Below, piece by piece: positions 27,446 through 52,933 of a DNA stretch of 64,000 bases (position 1 is its first letter; each line of letters begins with the position of its first letter). The stretch is taken from the IMG/VR virus record IMGVR_UViG_3300028840_004217, positions 28,050-92,049 of that record. One strand, 5' to 3'. Made by a program: the position numbers and the translations under genes. This DNA comes from a virus. A model generated the notes under the pieces. That model had not been told where the DNA came from, made no database searches, and was given only the letters and a program-made list of their open reading frames with translations.

Positions 27446-28060
27446 TCAAAACGAAGCCTCCGTGAAAAGCGTATACGTGAACGTGGTCCCGTGGCCGTGC
27501 TCGACCTGTCGCTGCGCCAGGCTGATGATCAGGTCGAACACGTCGGGGTCGGGAATCACCTGGCAGGCCGCAGACCACTTGCCGATCCTGACGGACCGCC
27601 GCAGTTCGGATGCCCGGTGTATATTGGCACCGATCACCGCCTTGTCCCACTCATGCATGTCGATATAGGAAACCTCCCCGGCATCAAGTCTCTGCCAGAA
27701 GTCGGGCTGCACACGCCAGAACTCTATCGGCGCGGCCTGCGTCAATGCCCGGTACTTGCCTCTGTGAAAACCGAGCTGGTACGCCGACCGATACTGGCCT
27801 GGCCGCATGATGGCCGTTCCACGCACGTTGAGGGGGTTCTGACGGTAGTACACGCCGGGGTCCGTAGTGCAGGGTGTCTGAATCATATTCCAGTCACCTG
27901 CGGCCTTCCAGACCACAAAAAACAGATCGTTGAACGTATCGGCCGTCAGGTCATTCGACCGGATGCCGCCGATGTTCAGATCGTAGTCGTCGCCCTCGAA
28001 AAAGGCATACATGGCGTTCTGGTATGCGGCCCGTATCTCGTCAAACGTCACCAGGTGCAT
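27446..28060 (-). CDS. Putative peptidoglycan-active enzyme/endolysin (L,D-transpeptidase-like His/Cys motif)
   Basis: LNIGGIR, FND, TTDPG, GANIH and WSAACQV motifs typical of a phage lysin-like family. Confidence 0.55.
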   Translation of the reverse strand: MHLVTFDEIRAAYQNAMYAFFEGDDYDLNIGGIRSNDLTADTFNDLFFVVWKAAGDWNMIQTPCTTDPGVYYRQNPLNVRGTAIMRPGQYRSAYQLGFHRGKYRALTQAAPIEFWRVQPDFWQRLDAGEVSYIDMHEWDKAVIGANIHRASELRRSVRIGKWSAACQVIPDPDVFDLIISLAQRQVEHGHGTTFTYTLFTEASF

Positions 28061-43817: not shown

Positions 43818-44123
43818 CGCCTCCGCAGACGCCACGTATGTTTTCGGGCATAGCACAACCAACAGCATCTGACCGGGAGGACATCACGATGACCATCAAT
43901 CACGATTACACTGCTTTCTGGTTCTCGGACGCGGACGTGCGCAGCCTGCTCGCTACGGGCAAGGCCGACAGCTCTGCCTGTCCGGAGGGCGTGTGGAAGC
44001 CGTTTCACGTGGAGGTGGGTGAAGCCGCCAAATTCGACAAACGGAAGTTCGCCCTCACCATCACCCAGGAGGACGTCGAGTACCTGCACGTCCACCGCCG
44101 CATCGACGCGAAGGAGATCGCGC

Positions 44124-44810
44124 ATGGCAACCGCAAAAAAGAAGCAACCCTCATCGTCGACGACATCTGCGCAGAAAGAGGCACCCCCCCAGGCTGACAC
44201 GGAGGTGCTGAACATCACGCGGGGCGACGACGGCAGCATCACCGTCGCTATGCCGGACATCAACGACAACCCGCTCGCCCGCTTCCGGTCCCGCATCGTG
44301 GCCACCGGATTCAAGCCCGCCAACCAGTTCACGGCCAACCCCCTGAACTGGCGTGAGCACCCGCCCGAACAGCGACAGGCCATGCAGGAGATACTGGCCA
44401 TGTTCGGCTGGATCGCTGGCGTGATCGAGAACCAGCGCACGGGCAACCTGATCGACGGCCACGAACGGATATGGGACGCACTGGACCAGGACGAGCAGAC
44501 CCTGGTGCCCTTCACGCTCGTCGACGTGAGCGAGGAGGAGGAAAAGCAACTGCTGGTGTTCTTCGACAAGGTGGGCGAGATGATCTACGCCAACCGGGAG
44601 AACCTGCGGCTGCTGATGGGGTCTGTCGGTGAAGAAGTGACCAACGAGAACGACGGCCTGCGCCTCCTGGCCAATATGATACAGCACCAACACCTGGAGA
44701 ACGAAAAAGCCTATGAGCCGCCCGACGAATTCCCGGAACACGACGAAGAAATCGACACGGAGTACTGCTGCCCCAAGTGCGGGTACGAATGGTCCGGCAA
44801 AGCCAGTTGA
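44124..44810 (+). CDS. ParB/Srx-like N-terminal domain protein with C-terminal zinc ribbon
   Basis: NPLNWREH...FGW...NQRTGNLIDGHER; CPKCGYEW. Confidence 0.8.
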   Translation: MATAKKKQPSSSTTSAQKEAPPQADTEVLNITRGDDGSITVAMPDINDNPLARFRSRIVATGFKPANQFTANPLNWREHPPEQRQAMQEILAMFGWIAGVIENQRTGNLIDGHERIWDALDQDEQTLVPFTLVDVSEEEEKQLLVFFDKVGEMIYANRENLRLLMGSVGEEVTNENDGLRLLANMIQHQHLENEKAYEPPDEFPEHDEEIDTEYCCPKCGYEWSGKAS

Positions 44811-46122
44811 CAAGCCCCCCTTCGTCGTGCCCTCTATGTCAGAGATAGAAGCGACGCCGCCCAACGGGTACACCGTCGTCAGCACTTTCAGCGGTGCGGG
44901 CGGCTCCTGTCTCGGCATGCGGATGGCCGGGTTTCGTGTGGCGTGGGCCTCTGAATTCGTGGAGGCGGCCCAAGAGGTGTACCGGATGAACCACCCTATG
45001 ACGCCCCTCGACCACCGCGACATACGGGAGGTCAAGGGCCAGGACATCCTCGACACGCTCGGCATCAAAGTGGGTGAACTCGATCTCCTGGAGGGGTCGC
45101 CCCCCTGCGCCTCCTTCTCGCTGGCCGGCAAGCGTGAGAAGGGGTGGGGCAAGGTGAACGCCTATTCGGACACCAAACAGCGCGTGGACGACCTGTTCCT
45201 GGAGTTCGCCCGCCTGATCAAAGAGATGCAGCCCAAGGTGTTCCTGGCCGAGAACGTGCGGGGCCTCATATCAGGTGTGTCGAAGGGCATGTTCAAGGAG
45301 TTCCTCAAGACGTTCAAAGCACTCGGCTATGACACCAAAGCGTGTCTGCTCAACGCCAAGTGGCTCGGCGTTCCGCAGAACAGGGAGCGCGTGTTCTTCA
45401 TGGGCGTCCGCAACGACCTGAAGGTGCGTCCCGTTTTTCCCAAGCCCCTGCCCTATTACTACACGGTGCGGGAGGCCATACCCTGGATCGTGCGTCACAG
45501 CAAGAGCAAGTCGTCCGGACAGTGGAACACCGACGTGCCGTGCATAGAGCAGGCGCAGATGGTGCCGAGTGATCAGGAGGTCAGTTCGACGCTCCTGCAG
45601 GGCGGCAGCATGAAGGCGGCCCACTTCGCGGAGACCACGAAGGACGCGCCCGACGTGCCGGGCACCCGCCTGGTGATGGACAGCTCGGGCCAGTGGAAAA
45701 CGATAGACTTCACGGACGACGCCTCCCCCTGCGTCCGCGCCAGCGGCGTGGGCCACCTGTTCGTGGTGGAGGATGAATCGGAGATCAAAGAGGGTACGGC
45801 CCTGGCCGGTGAGTGGGACAAACTCGCGCCGGGACAGAAGGGCAAGTTCCTCAACTTCATCAAGGCGCGGCCCGACCTGCCGTGTCCCACGGTGACCGCG
45901 ATGGGCGGACAGCCCGCCGCCAGCGTCGCCCACCCGTACCAGCGTCGCAAATTCTCGATGGCCGAGCTGCGGCGCATCTGTGCTTTCCCTGACGACTTCA
46001 AGCTCACCGGATCCTACTCACAGCAGTGGGAACGCCTCGGACGCGCCGTCCCGCCGGTCATGATGTACCACATAGCCTCTGCCGTGCGCGATGGCGTCCT
46101 GCGGAGGATAGACCGTGGATGA
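44713..46122 (+). CDS. DNA cytosine-C5 methyltransferase fold; predicted carboxymethyltransferase (start uncertain, possibly 44827 or 44836)
   Basis: FSGAGG, GSPPCASFS, ENV, PQNRERVF; motif X reads LGRAVPP instead of GNAV. Confidence 0.9.
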   Translation: MSRPTNSRNTTKKSTRSTAAPSAGTNGPAKPVDKPPFVVPSMSEIEATPPNGYTVVSTFSGAGGSCLGMRMAGFRVAWASEFVEAAQEVYRMNHPMTPLDHRDIREVKGQDILDTLGIKVGELDLLEGSPPCASFSLAGKREKGWGKVNAYSDTKQRVDDLFLEFARLIKEMQPKVFLAENVRGLISGVSKGMFKEFLKTFKALGYDTKACLLNAKWLGVPQNRERVFFMGVRNDLKVRPVFPKPLPYYYTVREAIPWIVRHSKSKSSGQWNTDVPCIEQAQMVPSDQEVSSTLLQGGSMKAAHFAETTKDAPDVPGTRLVMDSSGQWKTIDFTDDASPCVRASGVGHLFVVEDESEIKEGTALAGEWDKLAPGQKGKFLNFIKARPDLPCPTVTAMGGQPAASVAHPYQRRKFSMAELRRICAFPDDFKLTGSYSQQWERLGRAVPPVMMYHIASAVRDGVLRRIDRG

Positions 46123-46954
46123 CGTCGCCGCCCTGTGGCGTGAAAAACTCCTCACCACGATGCAGCCCTACATCGACCTGCCCATCATGCTGTCGGGCGG
46201 CGTGGATTCGGGCACGCTCCTGTGTGCCGCCCTCGAACTCGGCGGCAGGCCACCCTGCTATTCTTTCAAGCTGACCGGACCCGACATACCGGACGTACAG
46301 GTGGCCCGTAAGATGGCCAACGACTTCGACCTTCCTTTTACCCTTATCGTCATACCCCGAAACGAAGAACAGCTCTTAAACGACATCAGAGAGGTCATCT
46401 CGCTGCTCGGCGTGTCCAAGAAGGCCAGCGTCCAGTGCAGCCAGCCCGTCATGTACATGTGCCGCCAGATGAAGGCCGACGGTTTCGACCGGGCCATCGT
46501 CGGGACGGGCGCCGTGTGTCTGGACGACAAGAAGGTGGCGATGCTGTGGGCCAAGGAGGGTGAGGAATCGGCCCGCGCCTACCGCGCGGCCAAGCTGAAT
46601 GACAAGAACACGAACTGCGGCACGGGCAACATGCACCGCATGGGCCGCATCTGCGGCGTCCCGCTCGTGGAACCGTACTCGGAGGAGCCCCTGGTGAGTC
46701 ACGCCCTGGCCCTCGACTATGCGGAGCTGAACAGGCCCAAGCAGAAGGGCATCGCCCTCCGCGCCTTTCCCGACTTCTGGAAACGGGGGTACTACCGTCG
46801 CAACTCGCCCCTCCAGGTGAACAGCGGCGTGCGTGAGTGGCACGACACGCTCCTGAAGTCGCCCGTCAACAACGGACACCAGGCGGTCGTCGCCATCTAC
46901 AACGAGATCCGAAAAGAACTGGAGGCCAAAGGTGAACTGGCCGAACCTCTATGA
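46115..46954 (+). CDS. Asparagine-synthase-like ATP-dependent amide ligase (no glutaminase domain)
   Basis: PP-loop LSGGVDS; K..LR.AF C-terminal motif; 279 aa. Confidence 0.75.
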   Translation: MDDVAALWREKLLTTMQPYIDLPIMLSGGVDSGTLLCAALELGGRPPCYSFKLTGPDIPDVQVARKMANDFDLPFTLIVIPRNEEQLLNDIREVISLLGVSKKASVQCSQPVMYMCRQMKADGFDRAIVGTGAVCLDDKKVAMLWAKEGEESARAYRAAKLNDKNTNCGTGNMHRMGRICGVPLVEPYSEEPLVSHALALDYAELNRPKQKGIALRAFPDFWKRGYYRRNSPLQVNSGVREWHDTLLKSPVNNGHQAVVAIYNEIRKELEAKGELAEPL

Positions 46955-48062
46955 TATGGCCTATCTCGAAGCCGCCGAGCGGGTGTTGCGATCGCAACGG
47001 TACACGCAGGGGGCGGAACAAGCGGCTCTGGAAGCTGAATTCGTCCGGTGGCTCGGCGTGGACGATATGCACGCGGTGGCTGTCACGAACGGGACGGCGG
47101 CGTTGCAGGCCGCGCTGCTGGCCCACGGCATCCTGCCCGGTGATGAGGTGATCGTGCCGGCGCTCACGTTCACCGCCACCGGCCTGGCCGTCAAGCGCGT
47201 CGGTGCCGTACCCGTGTTCGTGGACATCGACCCGCAGACCCTCACCATCGACGTGGACCAACTCAACTATGCGGTGACGCCGCGCACAAAGGCGGTCATA
47301 GCGGTCGACCTGGACGGCCACCCGGCGCACTACGACGCACTGGAACCGTTCTGTGAAGGGCGCGGCCTGTTCCTCCTGGAGGATGCCTGTCCCGCCCACG
47401 GCTCGGTCCTCGACGGCCGCATCTGCGGGACCTTCGGTGACGCCGCCGCCTTCTCTATGAACCAGACCAAGATACACGGCGTGGGTGAGGGCGGCATGGT
47501 CGTGACGCGCCACGCACACCTGGCAGTGCGGGTACGGGCCCTCCGCGACTTCGGAGAAGTGGAGCGGCGCAAGCTGCGGGTGTCCACCCTGATGGGCGAC
47601 AACTGGAAGCTGGATGAGATGGGCGCGGCCATGGCCCGCGTGAGCCTCGCCTTCCTCGAGGAGCGCATCCGGACGTGCGTGGAGAACTGCGGCGTGCTGG
47701 ACGAAGCGATGAACGGGTTGCACTGGATACGACGGCCCCACATCAGGCCGGGTGCGTATGTGGTGCGCCACAAGTACCGCGCCAGAATCAACGGCAAGCG
47801 GGAAGCGATAGAGAATGAGATGACCGTGGCCGGGATACCGGTGACCGTGACGGACGTGCTGCCCCTGCCGCACCATCCGGTTTTCGAGCATGAACAGGCT
47901 GACGTGCCCCAGGCCGACCTCGCCGTGGAGAACACGGTGGTGATCGGATCACGTGAGTCACCACTGTGGGCTGTGTCCCGCGATGCCGTCGCCGTGTGGG
48001 GCGACAAGCTGCGGGGCGTTGAGACGAGGTTGTGGTCAACGATGAAAGGAGCGAACCGTTGA
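46932..48062 (+). CDS. DegT/DnrJ/EryC1/StrS PLP-dependent aminotransferase
   Basis: AVTNGTAAL, GDEVIVPALTF, EDAC, FSMNQTK...GEGG. Confidence 0.92.
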   Translation: MNWPNLYDMAYLEAAERVLRSQRYTQGAEQAALEAEFVRWLGVDDMHAVAVTNGTAALQAALLAHGILPGDEVIVPALTFTATGLAVKRVGAVPVFVDIDPQTLTIDVDQLNYAVTPRTKAVIAVDLDGHPAHYDALEPFCEGRGLFLLEDACPAHGSVLDGRICGTFGDAAAFSMNQTKIHGVGEGGMVVTRHAHLAVRVRALRDFGEVERRKLRVSTLMGDNWKLDEMGAAMARVSLAFLEERIRTCVENCGVLDEAMNGLHWIRRPHIRPGAYVVRHKYRARINGKREAIENEMTVAGIPVTVTDVLPLPHHPVFEHEQADVPQADLAVENTVVIGSRESPLWAVSRDAVAVWGDKLRGVETRLWSTMKGANR

Positions 48063-48210
48063 ACCTGCGTGTACCACATACACGGGGCAGGGTGAACCGC
48101 ACATTTCGCACCCGGTCCTACGCAGGACGCTGGAAATGGGCAAATCGTCAACCTGGGTGCCAGGCATCACGGATGGCCCCGCAGGAGTAGGTAACGAAAG
48201 GAAACATCTC

Positions 48211-49371
48211 ATGAGCAATCTCACGGAAGTCAAACACGATCATCCTCGGGTGGCCATCGTCGGCGTGGGCAACTGTGCCAGCGCCCTGGTGCAGGGCACG
48301 CAATACTACGCGGACAACGACACGAAGGAAGGGCTGGTGCGCCACATGATCGGCCCCTATGCGCCGGAGCACGTCCAGTTCAGTGCGGCCTTCGACGTGG
48401 ACCCGCGCAAAGTGGGTCACGACCTCGGACGCGCCATCAACCTGGGTGAGAACAACACCTGGCAGATGGTGCGCGACCCGTGGCACCGCAACGTACAGGT
48501 GGTCGAAAGCCCGGTGATGGACGGCCTGGGCAGAACCTACCGATCGGTGCTGCCCGCCCTGAACGGACGCGGGGATCGACCCACCTCCGAGGAGGACGTC
48601 GAATTCTATGCCGACATCCTGAGTGAATCGGACACCACCGTCCTGGTCAACTACCTCCCGGTGGGTTCCGAAGTCGCCACCCGCTTCTGGGCCGACGTGT
48701 GCCTGACGGCGGGCGTGGGTATGGTGAACGCGATCCCGGTGTTCATAGCGTCCGACCCGCAGTATCAAGCCGCCTTCGAGGAGCGCAACCTGCCCCTCAT
48801 GGGCGACGACATCAAGAGTCAGTTCGGGGCGACGATACTGCATCGCCTTCTGGCTCGCCTCGTGGGTGCCAGGGGCTACACCCTGGACAAGACCTACCAG
48901 CTCAATTTCGGCGGCAACATGGACTTCCGCAACATGCTCGACCATGAACGCCTCGCCTCGAAAAAGAAAAGCAAGACGGGCGCGGTGCAGGCCGAGTATG
49001 ACATAGAGGACGACCTGGTGCACATCTCTCCGTCCGACTATGTGCCGTGGCTCAAAGACGAGAAGTGGTGCTACATCAACATGCACCTGTCGGGATTCGG
49101 CGGCGCGCCGTCCGAGCTGGAGTTGAAGCTGAAGGTGTGGGACAGTCCCAACAGCGCGGGGTGCGTGATCGACTGCGTGCGCATCTGCCACCTGGCACTG
49201 CGGTGCGGCCTGGGCGGCACGCTCAACTACCCGTCCGCCGTGTACATGAAGTCGCCGCCCGAACAGATCGCGGACAGTCAGGCCGACATCAACCTGGATG
49301 CCTGGATAGAGGCCATGATGAACATCCTCGATCCGGTCACAAGCAACCATGAGTATGAAATCGTCGAATGA
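48211..49371 (+). CDS. ino1: myo-Inositol-1-phosphate synthase
   Basis: VAIVGVGNCASALVQG, YLPVGSE, GDDIKSQFGAT, QLNFGGNMDF, SKKKSKT, VWDSPNSAG. Confidence 0.95.
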   Translation: MSNLTEVKHDHPRVAIVGVGNCASALVQGTQYYADNDTKEGLVRHMIGPYAPEHVQFSAAFDVDPRKVGHDLGRAINLGENNTWQMVRDPWHRNVQVVESPVMDGLGRTYRSVLPALNGRGDRPTSEEDVEFYADILSESDTTVLVNYLPVGSEVATRFWADVCLTAGVGMVNAIPVFIASDPQYQAAFEERNLPLMGDDIKSQFGATILHRLLARLVGARGYTLDKTYQLNFGGNMDFRNMLDHERLASKKKSKTGAVQAEYDIEDDLVHISPSDYVPWLKDEKWCYINMHLSGFGGAPSELELKLKVWDSPNSAGCVIDCVRICHLALRCGLGGTLNYPSAVYMKSPPEQIADSQADINLDAWIEAMMNILDPVTSNHEYEIVE

Positions 49372-49867
49372 CATCGCAATGAACGGCGTGATTGCCAAAG
49401 AGATACGGGAGCCCGTCAACGCAGGCCGCCCGTTCTTCGTGGGGCAGGCACCGGGGCGTGACGGAGGCCGCCCACTCCTGGGGGCGGCATACCGCCGCTT
49501 CGGCGCACCCCACGGTATGACCGTCGAAGAATTCGCAGCCGCCACGGACCGGGCCAACCTGATACCCTACTGGCCCGGCAAGTCGGGCAAAGGCGATGCC
49601 TTCCCCAAAGGCGAGGCCAGGACGGAAGCCTGTCGCCTACCTTTGCACGGACGTCACCGCGTCCTCCTGCTCGGACAGAACGTGGCGTCCTGTTTCAACA
49701 TAGCGGGCGGTGACATGCTGGAGTGGTTCGTACACCCGCGCGGATTCATCTGCGCCGTCCTGCCGCACCCGTCCGGCATCAACAGGCAGTGGAACGACGC
49801 GGCCACCGTCGACCAGGTGAACGACTTCATGGCCCGCGTGTGGGACAATGCGAAGGAGAGATCATGA
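49349..49867 (+). CDS. Uracil-DNA glycosylase-superfamily protein
   Basis: FVGQAPG motif A, VLLLG, LPHPSG motif B. Confidence 0.75.
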   Translation: MSMKSSNDIAMNGVIAKEIREPVNAGRPFFVGQAPGRDGGRPLLGAAYRRFGAPHGMTVEEFAAATDRANLIPYWPGKSGKGDAFPKGEARTEACRLPLHGRHRVLLLGQNVASCFNIAGGDMLEWFVHPRGFICAVLPHPSGINRQWNDAATVDQVNDFMARVWDNAKERS

Positions 49868-50586
49868 GTAAAGAAACCGGCACGGACCATGTGATGCCCG
49901 AGGACAAGTGGGCGTTCGACGACGAAGTGACCGACGTGTTCGATGACATGCTCGCACGCTCTATACCGCAGTATGACGTGATGCGCGAACTCACGTTTCA
50001 ACTGGCCGCACACTTCCAGCAGGACAAGACGGACATCCTCGACATGGGATGCTCACGCGGGGAAGCCGTCGCCGCCCTGATCGACAAGTTCGGCGCCAGC
50101 AACCGGTTCACGGGCATCGACGTGTCGGAGCCTATGCTGAAAGCGGCCACCGACAGATTCCAGGGCTACATCAACTGCGGCGTGGTCGACATACGGCACT
50201 GTGACCTGCGTACCGACTTCCCGAACGTGTCCGCCTCCGTCGTCCTCTGCGTTCTCACGCTCCAGTTCACGCCGATAGAATACAGGCTCCGCATCATACA
50301 GGACATCTATGACCATCTCGTTCCAGGCGGGGCCCTATTACTGGTCGAGAAGGTACTTGGGGCCTCAGCCCGTATAGATACCCTGATGGTAGATGAATAC
50401 CTCCTGATGAAGTCTACGCAGGGTTATTCAAGAGATGAGATAGACCGGAAGCGGCTTTCACTGGAAGGCGTACTCGTACCGGTGACGGCGCGTATGAACG
50501 AGGAATTCCTTCAGTCGGCAGGCTTCAGAGAGATCGACTGTTACTGGCGGTGGCTCAACTTCATGGGCTGGCTGGCCGTCAGGTAG
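49864..50586 (+). CDS. cmoA: Carboxy-SAM synthase (CmoA-like)
   Basis: WAFDDEVTDVFDDMLARSIPQY, DMGCSRG, LTLQF, VEK, KRLSLEGV (Arg retained), WLNF. Confidence 0.85.
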   Translation: MSKETGTDHVMPEDKWAFDDEVTDVFDDMLARSIPQYDVMRELTFQLAAHFQQDKTDILDMGCSRGEAVAALIDKFGASNRFTGIDVSEPMLKAATDRFQGYINCGVVDIRHCDLRTDFPNVSASVVLCVLTLQFTPIEYRLRIIQDIYDHLVPGGALLLVEKVLGASARIDTLMVDEYLLMKSTQGYSRDEIDRKRLSLEGVLVPVTARMNEEFLQSAGFREIDCYWRWLNFMGWLAVR

Positions 50587-50610
50587 ACGAACACGCGGGG
50601 GATAGCACGC

Positions 50611-51393
50611 ATGGCCAACAGCGGCGGCATCACGACAGATGAAAAAGGGCGGCGGTATTTGAACGGAGCCCCGCTGTGTACGCACGTATTTCGTAAGGGG
50701 CGACGCAAGGGCGAACCCTGTCGTCGCATAGCGGTCAAGAACAGGCCGTACTGCAAGGACCACGGCGGACGCAACCCGGTGGGTATCGACACGCCCATGT
50801 ACATTCACGGCCGTCGCTCGAAATACTCGCCCGCCACCATAGCGGCCACCATCGACGAGATCATGGCCGACCCGCCACAGCGGATTCTCGACATACGGGA
50901 GGACATCGCCACGACGGAAGGCCTCCTGCGTGACGCCCTTGAAAAGCTGGAGACCGGAGAAGGGCCCAATGCCTGGAAGCAGGTGCAGACGCACTACAGG
51001 GCGATGCAGACCGCGCTACGGACGGGTGACATAGAGGGGGCGCAGCGACACCTGAATGAGATGGGCCCGCCCCTGGCCGAAGGCGCGTCGGATTCGGAGG
51101 CGCGACAGCAAGTCGCTGCACTCACACGCCAGAGCGCGGATCTGCGGGGCCGACTGTTCAACATGATGAAAGAACACGACGAGATCATCACAACCAAGCA
51201 GCTCCTCGCCTTCCTCTCCACGCAGATGGTGCGCCTCGGAGAGCGTGTGGCCGCGTTCGACTTCGGCGACGAGTTCATAGACACGGTGGGACGCGACATT
51301 GAAGAACTCCTCTCAACAACATTTAAAGACCCTGTTCCTCGACCAAGCCAGAACGGGCCTGGCGAAATTCCAGCGGCCAACAGCGGGGCCTGA
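50611..51393 (+). CDS. Terminase small subunit-like protein
   Basis: C...C...CKDHGG and HGRRSK motifs; directly upstream of the large subunit. Confidence 0.7.
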   Translation: MANSGGITTDEKGRRYLNGAPLCTHVFRKGRRKGEPCRRIAVKNRPYCKDHGGRNPVGIDTPMYIHGRRSKYSPATIAATIDEIMADPPQRILDIREDIATTEGLLRDALEKLETGEGPNAWKQVQTHYRAMQTALRTGDIEGAQRHLNEMGPPLAEGASDSEARQQVAALTRQSADLRGRLFNMMKEHDEIITTKQLLAFLSTQMVRLGERVAAFDFGDEFIDTVGRDIEELLSTTFKDPVPRPSQNGPGEIPAANSGA

Positions 51394-52933
51394 TGTATAC
51401 CGGCGGTGGGAAGCGTCTGCCAAAGACCTGGGGCTGGACGAAGCGCCCTGGTGTGACTTCCTACTCAAATACTTCTATCCTTCGTTCATAGACGCGACGG
51501 GCCACTGCTTTGAACCCGCCGTGTTTCACCATCTGTTTTGGGCGTGGGTGTGGGACGTGCAGCGCGGAGAGCGTCCGCAGCCGCTCGTCAACTGCTGGTT
51601 CCGCGGCTCCTCGAAATCGACCAACGCCGAGATCATACCCTGTGTGTTCGGCGCGTATGACAAACGCTCCTACGGCATCTACGTGTGCAATACGCAGGCA
51701 CAGGCCGATGACCACGTTCAGAACATCGCAGACAAACTCTCCTCCCGCCCCTTTGCCGACGACTACCCCGCCCTGGCGGATCGCGCCGTCGGAGCCTTCG
51801 GCCACTCGAAGGGCTGGCGCAGAAACAGGCTCCGCACCAGATCGGGCATGACGATCGATGCCCTCGGCCTCGACACGGGCCGCATCCGCGGACTCAAGAT
51901 CGAGGATCAGCGTCCGGATTTCCTCGTCCTCGATGACATCGACGACATCACGGACAGTACGGGCACGATAGAGAAGAACACCGCCGTACTGACCAAGAGC
52001 ATCCTGCCCGCAGGCGCGGACGACCTGGCTGTGTGCGTCATTCAGAACAAGGTGCGCGACGACGGCATCATGGGCAGCCTGGTCAACGGCAACGCGGATT
52101 ATCTGCGGGACCGGTTTCTGAACGGCCCTATCCCGGCGATACAGAACTTCGAGTTCGAGCACCGGGCGAACCGCAACGTGATCGTCGCCGGCATCAGCAC
52201 CTGGAGCGGCAAGTCGCTGGCCCGGTGCCAGAAGGAAATCGACGACGAAGGCATCAGCGCGTTCCTCGAGGAGAACCAGCACGCCACCGCCACGATCAAG
52301 GGCGGCATCTTCGACCTGGTGCACTACCGCCACTGCAACCCTGGTGACGTACCCACGCCAGAGTTCACGTCCGTGTGGGTCGATCCCGCCGTGTCCGATA
52401 CGGACAACAGCGACGCCCACGGTGTCCAGGCGTCCTCGATGGACGCCAACGGGCTGGTGTACAAACGTCGCTCCTGGGAGCAACGGGCCACGCCGGAGCA
52501 GGCACTGATGCGGGCCATCATGTGGGCCGACGAGTTGAACGCCGACTGCGTGGGTGTCGAAACCGATCAGGGGGGCGACCTGTGGAAAGGAACCTACCGG
52601 CGCATGTGCGCCGAGCTGGGCAAACCGCGCAGGCCGTTCCGATCTGCGAAGGCGGGTTCGTCGCGGCAGAGCAAGACGGGCCGCGTGGGGCAGCAGGTGA
52701 CGGACTATGAAACCGGCCTGGTGGTTCACGTCCTCGGGACGCACCACGTCCTTGAGAACGCCCTGGACCGCTTTCCCAAGCAGAAGCCGTTCGACCTGGC
52801 CGACGCGGATTACTGGTGCTGGAAGGACCTGACGCAGTTCAGGGAGTCCGAGTCGAGTTCCTACTACGAGGAAACGACGCTCGAAGACGAGCTGGACGAA
52901 ATCGAGCGTCTGGAAGCGGAAGGGACGTTATAG
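51299..52933 (+). CDS. Terminase large subunit
   Basis: Walker A FRGSSKST, RG...RPDFLVLDD Walker B, VDPA, ETDQGG, DLADA nuclease motifs. Confidence 0.9.
   Translation: MKNSSQQHLKTLFLDQARTGLAKFQRPTAGPDVYRRWEASAKDLGLDEAPWCDFLLKYFYPSFIDATGHCFEPAVFHHLFWAWVWDVQRGERPQPLVNCWFRGSSKSTNAEIIPCVFGAYDKRSYGIYVCNTQAQADDHVQNIADKLSSRPFADDYPALADRAVGAFGHSKGWRRNRLRTRSGMTIDALGLDTGRIRGLKIEDQRPDFLVLDDIDDITDSTGTIEKNTAVLTKSILPAGADDLAVCVIQNKVRDDGIMGSLVNGNADYLRDRFLNGPIPAIQNFEFEHRANRNVIVAGISTWSGKSLARCQKEIDDEGISAFLEENQHATATIKGGIFDLVHYRHCNPGDVPTPEFTSVWVDPAVSDTDNSDAHGVQASSMDANGLVYKRRSWEQRATPEQALMRAIMWADELNADCVGVETDQGGDLWKGTYRRMCAELGKPRRPFRSAKAGSSRQSKTGRVGQQVTDYETGLVVHVLGTHHVLENALDRFPKQKPFDLADADYWCWKDLTQFRESESSSYYEETTLEDELDEIERLEAEGTL

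Follow-up and report, generated by a model that had tools for sequence, protein, structure and literature searches.

The subject of this analysis is a 64,000-nucleotide window of viral DNA (the whole stretch analysed, positions 28,050 to 92,049 of the IMG/VR virus record IMGVR_UViG_3300028840_004217) and, within it, the gene at 44713..46122 (+) for a 469-amino-acid protein, P0001, which is predicted to be a DNA cytosine-C5 carboxymethyltransferase of the CmoX type. The window forms the final 64 kb of a complete record of 92,049 bp bearing direct terminal repeats (exact, 144 bp, as found by script), has a GC content of 60%, and its DNA is present in one sediment and one seawater metagenome, one or other of which may be the sample of origin. 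No RNA run is listed among the public sequencing runs that carry this DNA, and a megablast search of positions 44000-52000 against GenBank phages gave no match. In order, the locus comprises genes for a ParB-like partner, CmoX, a CmoY-like ligase, a DegT aminotransferase, an inositol-3-phosphate synthase, a protein of the uracil-DNA glycosylase (UDG) superfamily, CmoA, a 260-amino-acid open reading frame and the terminase large subunit, and the majority of the junctions overlap. Two minus-strand open reading frames (45573-46007 and 45271-45933) were considered as genes and rejected, as both lie wholly inside the well-supported methyltransferase frame of a genome with this GC content.

P0001 matches PF00145 (E 7e-60) and TIGR00675 (E 5e-53) along its entire length, and the landmarks of a cytosine-C5 methyltransferase can be located along it, all on the plus strand. 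These include motif IV, SPPC (S129-C132, 45097..45108), with C132 as the predicted catalytic nucleophile, motif VI, ENV (E180-V182, 45250..45258), motif VIII, R224-E-R226 (45382..45390), and motif X, ERLGRAVPP (46030..46056), in which R444 is the predicted carboxylate-binding residue. The SPPC tetrad is invariant in three alignments (A1-A3), the ENV motif is invariant in alignment A3 and in all related loci, and R224 and R226 are invariant in alignment A3. The C-terminal part of the protein reads ...QQWERLGRAVPPVMMYHIAS..., and the translation contains ...QQWERLGRAVPP... at 46021-46056, so that residue 444 is an arginine encoded by CGC at 46042-46044 (44713 + 3 x 443). A sequence-only reading of this DNA had reported that motif X reads GRAV, with the arginine codon at these very positions, and the translation bears this out exactly. 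The possibility that R444 is a sequencing error was rejected, since CGC differs from AAC or AAT at two positions, which a lone base-call error cannot account for, and since the arginine is conserved in relatives. The AlphaFold2 model of P0001, built with 69 relatives, has a predicted local distance difference test (pLDDT) score of 83 overall and above 90 throughout the catalytic domain, and Foldseek ranks 8yf3 first among its PDB matches (E 2.7e-28, TM-score 0.82 on the target).

Known cytosine-C5 methyltransferases such as M.HhaI, M.HaeIII and DNMT1 have the fold and the order of motifs I, IV, VI, VIII and X in common with P0001. They differ from it in carrying asparagine in motif X (N304 in M.HhaI) and glutamine after the catalytic cysteine, where P0001 has Ala133, and they use S-adenosylmethionine (SAM) as cofactor. 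When the C-terminal 65 residues of P0001, in which R444 is position 40, were compared with the PDB by phmmer (HMMER), fragment positions 7-52 (P0001 411-456) aligned with M.HhaI 271-316. Both segments have the same length and R444 therefore falls on N304. The alignments with DNMT1 place GNAVPP under the GRAVPP of P0001, with Asn opposite R444, and that with M.HaeIII likewise sets the Asn of GNAVP opposite it. The proposal that this arginine occupies the site of the motif X asparagine thus stands on all three enzymes. In the case of M.MpeI (4DKJ, 8C56), phmmer covered the N-terminal half only and the C-terminal fragment retrieved no M.MpeI match, so that the equivalence of its N374 rests on the literature. 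As the sequence-only reading had stated, the N374K variant of M.MpeI gains the use of carboxy-SAM (Cx-SAM); the lysine is reported to form a salt bridge with the carboxylate, and M.MedI N377K gains the same ability (PMC12015181). These engineered enzymes resemble P0001 in presenting a positive side chain at the motif X asparagine site. They differ from it in that the residue is lysine and not arginine, in that they are laboratory mutants of true methyltransferases that retain SAM activity, and in their CG specificity.

The best solved relative of P0001, by a wide margin, is SpCmoX of Synechococcus phage S-B43, the founding member of the CmoX family (published in December 2025), whose structure has been determined with Cx-SAM (PDB 8YF3, E 9e-62). 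The product of SpCmoX is 5-carboxymethylcytosine, Cx-SAM is the only cofactor accepted by the wild-type enzyme, and its Arg350, which stands in for Asn304 of M.HhaI, contacts the carboxymethyl group of Cx-SAM (Yang et al., Nat Commun 2025, PMC12783734). The same authors treat M.MpeI N374K as a mirror of this arginine (PMC12783734). ERLGR of P0001 sits on ERVGR of the 8YF3 chain, whose second arginine is, by counting, chain residue 350. In a three-way alignment (A1), R350 of SpCmoX and R444 of P0001 are identical residues at one position, and so are the SPPC motifs (S95-C98 and S129-C132, respectively). The residues that contact the adenine and ribose of Cx-SAM in SpCmoX, namely F25, E47, F48 and D69 (PMC12783734), are also identical in that alignment, where they correspond to F59, E81, F82 and D103 of P0001. 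The sequence, fold and locus features of the CmoX family are therefore all found in P0001: the PF00145 fold, SPPC, the motif X arginine, the F/E/F/D cofactor contacts, the active-site glutamate and arginines, and linkage to CmoA. The idea that the motif X arginine marks such enzymes is already published as the criterion that defines the CmoX family, and it introduces no new principle; the SPPC and arginine criterion has been used to gather 5,615 candidates, linked to CmoA on 4,257 contigs, although linkage is not strictly required (PMC12783734).

At the level of the locus, S-B43 has, like the phage studied here, a cytosine-C5 methyltransferase fold with SPPC and an arginine within E-R-x-G-R, a linked CmoA and a linked asparagine-synthetase-like ligase. 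In that system, the phage CmoA supplies Cx-SAM and the ligase, CmoY, subsequently adds glycine to the modified base (PMC12783734). The likeness between SpCmoX and P0001 (approximately 40-44% identity) is confined to the catalytic domain. The target-recognition region of P0001 (residues ~238-400) is unalignable with that of SpCmoX and about 100 amino acids longer, which means that the GC specificity of SpCmoX is not transferable to P0001. This region contains an insert of about 80 residues (~270-348, window 45520-45760), modelled with pLDDT below 50, which is not present in SpCmoX and most relatives; at its other end, P0001 begins with a low-complexity N-terminal extension of approximately 30 amino acids relative to SpCmoX. 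The closest cultured relative is gp123 of the Streptomyces phage TurkishDelight (48% identity over 94% of the protein), which has ERIGRAVPP as motif X and lies, with gp124 and gp125, in the gene order ParB-like, methyltransferase, ligase and CmoA, an order that it has in common with the window. Uncultured relatives reach up to 60% identity.

In the window, CmoA, the predicted Cx-SAM synthase, is encoded on the same strand as CmoX, 3.7 kb downstream (49864..50586, (+); 240 amino acids from ATG 49864). This ATG is the true start: AAGGAG precedes it, and it overlaps the stop codon of the gene before it in the sequence ATGA. The protein matches TIGR00740 (E 5e-49) over model positions 13-238 of 239 with 167 bits, compared with an equivalog cut-off of 193 and a score of 116 for the biochemically validated SpCmoA.

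The association between the arginine and CmoA was followed across relatives gathered from IMG/VR, by P0001 and then by alignment, which together with two GenBank loci amounted to 96 loci. The motif X residue was readable in 95 of them, and a CmoA homologue was scored in the flanks. CmoA was found in the flank of 81 of the 84 Arg forms and of none of the 11 Asn or Leu forms, and in each of the three Arg loci lacking it one flank is shorter than 2 kb. When both flanks are required to reach 2.5 kb or more, all 33 Arg forms have CmoA (33 with, 0 without) and the three Asn/Leu forms do not (0 with, 3 without). As the loci are related to one another, the naive Fisher value of 5e-12 is not to be taken as a probability. 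A quick maximum-likelihood tree distributes the Asn/Leu forms over about five groups interspersed with Arg forms (five changes), and its well-supported branches force only one change. The distance between CmoX and CmoA is within 2,500 nt in 80 of the 81 relatives (median 386 nt, maximum 2,514), and thus the 3.7 kb observed in the window exceeds that in all of them.

The arginine does not vary by itself. In all 84 Arg forms it lies inside an E-R-x-G-R pentad, and the first residue of this pentad (position 440 of P0001; codon at window 46030-46032), which co-varies with the motif X arginine, is Glu in every one of the 84 Arg forms, in comparison with Ala in six, Glu in three and His in one of the ten Asn forms and Ala in the Leu form. 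The residue following the catalytic cysteine (A133 in P0001; codon at window 45109-45111) co-varies with it as well: it is Ala, Ser, Cys or Arg in the 84 Arg forms, never Gln, which is the commonest residue in the Asn forms (five of the nine read there). The rule formed by E-R-x-G-R and a small residue after the catalytic cysteine holds across about a hundred uncultured phages, so that carboxymethyltransferases become annotatable even on short contigs without CmoA. Four JGI metagenome contigs (L116-L118 and L120) contain more divergent methyltransferases (31-35% identity), in the order methyltransferase, CmoA, ligase, with a motif X of the form YERCGRTVT(I/V)P. The presence of ERCGR beside CmoA and a ligase in this lineage of ~33% identity extends the predicted arginine signature beyond the close family.

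Taken together, the alignment of R444 with SpCmoX R350, the conserved cofactor pocket and the co-occurrence of the arginine with CmoA support what the sequence-only reading had proposed, namely a carboxymethyltransferase matched to the linked CmoA. That 44713-46122 encodes a CmoX-family DNA cytosine-C5 carboxymethyltransferase is given a probability of roughly 0.9 on this comparative evidence. By analogy with the structure and assays of SpCmoX, R444 would form a salt bridge with the carboxylate and P0001 would use Cx-SAM exclusively. In the proposed mechanism, Cys132 would attack C6 of a flipped-out cytosine, as in any cytosine-C5 methyltransferase, with Glu180 and Arg224/Arg226 holding the target base, and the resulting C5 carbanion would attack the sulfonium substituent of the cofactor. 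The latter would be Cx-SAM, made by the phage's own CmoA out of SAM and prephenate, and Arg444, which replaces the asparagine normally found beside the methyl group, would salt-bridge the extra carboxylate. The expected product is 5-carboxymethylcytosine.

Several observations weigh against this reading or narrow it. SpCmoX R350N accepts neither SAM nor Cx-SAM (PMC12783734), which indicates that the arginine is necessary and need not be the sole determinant of cofactor choice; the R-to-N revertant that had been suggested as a check on P0001 is, for the same reason, unlikely to be informative. The two further sites that co-vary with the arginine (the Ala/Ser after the cysteine and Glu440) point in the same direction, and their co-variation may be the reason why R350N alone leaves SpCmoX no methyltransferase. 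The engineered lysine variants still methylate with SAM (PMC12015181), so that residual SAM use by P0001 is conceivable. The target-recognition region is unalignable with SpCmoX and modelled with low confidence at 270-348, and the recognition sequence is expected to differ from the GC of SpCmoX. Finally, only one pair of loci on supported branches provides an independent Arg/CmoA contrast (five on the best tree), on which a sign test has no power; accordingly, a perfect association is claimed here, and repeated independent switches between arginine and asparagine are not.

The retained SAM activity of the engineered enzymes gives some substance to a dual-cofactor transferase, which would use Cx-SAM when CmoA is expressed and also methylate with SAM. 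With M.MedI-N377K, protection exceeds 99% whether SAM or carboxy-SAM is the cofactor, and M.MpeI-N374K retains partial methylation activity (PMC12015181). This alternative is nevertheless unlikely, given that wild-type SpCmoX, in which all the pocket residues are the same as in P0001, took Cx-SAM only, and that the natural enzymes carry the PC(A/S) and Glu440 changes that the engineered variants do not. Even less probable is an ordinary SAM-dependent 5-methylcytosine methyltransferase in which the arginine is neutral and CmoA serves SAM depletion or tRNA modification. Its fold is canonical, as are motifs I, IV, VI and VIII, and SAM depletion by CmoA has been raised as an open question (PMC12783734). 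However, such an enzyme would not explain why the arginine, which occupies the site adjoining the transferred group, is found in 84 of 84 Arg-type relatives, 81 of them with CmoA in the flank, and is absent from the 11 relatives without CmoA, nor why the methyltransferase gene shows translational coupling with that of a carboxylate-dependent amide ligase. Regarding tRNA modification, CmoB of the tRNA uridine-5-oxyacetic acid pathway also consumes the Cx-SAM made by CmoA, and an arginine has been proposed to recognise the carboxymethyl group there, as cited at second hand in PMC12783734. CmoB differs from P0001 in its substrate, tRNA 5-hydroxyuridine, and in belonging to another family with a class I methyltransferase fold, and no CmoB-like Cx-SAM user was noticed among the proteins scanned at 44019-52933. 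A catalytically dead homologue that only binds DNA or cofactor is scarcely credible, as nothing specific favours it beyond the unusual low-confidence insert, and Cys132, Glu180, R224/R226 and all the cofactor contacts are preserved in a catalytic domain modelled with high confidence.

The value of the motif X finding is that of a confirmation, in which a single residue, taken from the bare sequence, gives the right prediction of a changed cofactor chemistry, and the wider locus carries more weight. The gene following CmoX encodes a predicted CmoY-like ATP-dependent amide ligase of 279 amino acids (46115..46954, (+); PF00733, E 7.6e-11), the start of which overlaps the CmoX stop by 8 nt. It has a trait that marks CmoY, an asparagine-synthetase-type PP-loop domain beside CmoX, and its PP-loop, SGGVDS, is invariant in the ligase alignment (A4). 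It shares 27% identity with SpCmoY (E 8e-20), and its closer homologues are 53 proteins that form a group apart (up to 63% identity), all of which, like the window ligase itself, are without a glutaminase domain. The TurkishDelight ligase differs in being a 466-amino-acid AsnB-type protein that includes a glutaminase domain and presumably uses ammonia as the amine.

Downstream of the ligase lie a pyridoxal phosphate-dependent aminotransferase of the DegT/DnrJ/EryC1/StrS family (46932..48062, (+); PF01041, E 5e-79; true start possibly ATG 46956) and an inositol-3-phosphate synthase homologue (48136..49371, (+); TIGR03450, E 1e-111, short of the equivalog cut-off). In the PDB, the former is best matched by 7B0D, deposited as a glutamine--scyllo-inositol transaminase (E 1e-47), with sugar-nucleotide aminotransferases scoring nearly equal, and the latter by 1GR0, Ino1 of M. 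tuberculosis (E 4e-100). S-B43 lacks the DegT and inositol-phosphate synthase genes that follow the ligase here, TurkishDelight lacks these two as well as the UDG-like gene, and neither DegT nor the synthase was present in any of the first 96 CmoX-related loci. Used as single query sequences, neither the ligase nor the synthase retrieved a relative from IMG/VR, whereas alignment-based scans did find relatives. When IMG/VR and the JGI metagenomes were scanned with an alignment of the 53-homologue ligase group, DegT was found directly after the ligase in 14 metagenome loci, representing about ten lineages. The arrangement ligase-DegT(-synthase), invariably contiguous and in the same order, occurs in L099/L100, L107-L115, L124, L125, L128, L130 and L144 at 30-63% identity. 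It precedes CmoX in L128 and L144 and follows it in L108-L115, and every CmoX of these loci with motif X covered has the arginine. In two of the loci related to P0001 (L035 and L043), CmoX is followed by a UDG-like gene and then by CmoA. Together with the longer CmoX-CmoA gap, this makes the window look like such a locus with a three-gene insertion.

Other genes may occupy the same place. After sister ligases that are 33-35% identical to that of the window, a SET-domain protein and an AdoMet decarboxylase stand ahead of CmoA in one locus (L073:11341-14063), and a fusion of AdoMet decarboxylase and spermidine synthase followed by a second decarboxylase does so in another (L106:9034-13086). Their gene content suggests polyamine amides of 5-carboxymethylcytosine in these two lineages. 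More generally, the slot adjoining the ligase (in the window, from ligase to CmoA) is a predicted swappable amine-supply cassette, the putative states of which are empty, an AsnB-type glutaminase ligase replacing the short one, polyamine genes, or DegT plus inositol-phosphate synthase.

For the window, the last of these states leads to a tentative proposal, to which we give somewhat less than even odds. 5-Carboxymethylcytosine may be an intermediate that the ligase amidates with an inositol-derived amine, and not with glycine or ammonia, to yield a cyclitol-bearing DNA base. The amine would be an aminocyclitol of the inosamine type, possibly phosphorylated. The phage inositol-3-phosphate synthase would supply the precursor, which would pass through a keto-inositol and be converted into the amine by the DegT aminotransferase. 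One of the loci with ligase and DegT (L124) is missing the synthase, as expected for a precursor-supply gene. What weighs against the proposal is that no PF01408 (Gfo/Idh/MocA) dehydrogenase and no PF00459 inositol monophosphatase were found in the complete genome or in the L099/L100 records, so that the pathway would have to rely on enzymes of the host or on a non-canonical route. Literature searches found no report of inosamine-bearing DNA, and neither aminotransferases nor inositol nor polyamines are mentioned in the text of the CmoX paper (PMC12783734). The make-up of the locus suggests that phage DNA carries several kinds of amide hypermodification not yet described, and that there are natural ligases accepting new amines, which could serve in DNA functionalisation.

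Regarding the remaining genes of the locus, the upstream partner (44124..44810, (+)) is termed ParB-like by position. By tblastn, it is similar (up to 39% over 173 amino acids) to the gene that precedes CmoX in most related loci, and its C-terminus, an acidic stretch followed by a CPxC...WSGK tail, is common to TurkishDelight gp122, annotated as ParB-like, and to many related loci (e.g., L002:8375-8968). The protein has no Pfam match and no ParB domain, and its similarity to gp122 is confined to the CPxC tail, so the ParB assignment is unconfirmed. The UDG-superfamily protein (49349..49867, (+)) matches PF03167 below the cut-off (E 1.8e-4), with GQAPG and HPS motifs that can be read, and has no sequence relative in the PDB. 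A protein of this type, with GQAPG and HPS, directly adjoins the methyltransferase in seven relatives (L006, L035, L043, L045, L108, L109 and L113). In L006, it stands beside an Asn-type methyltransferase without CmoA, which argues that the gene tracks the methyltransferase rather than carboxymethylation. The protein may repair uracil arising from enzyme-promoted cytosine deamination.

A further occurrence of the inositol-3-phosphate synthase was seen in Stenotrophomonas phage Moby (L025; MN095772.1, 28981-30231), where a homologue with 39% identity is part of a 7-deazaguanine DNA-modification cluster. This cluster contains FolE, the synthase, and QueC-like, TGT/DpdA-like and QueE-like genes, and the same set is found in 16 Stenotrophomonas phage records. 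As judged by its gene content, the predicted 7-deazaguanine cluster is a second, unrelated DNA-modification context for inositol-3-phosphate synthase.

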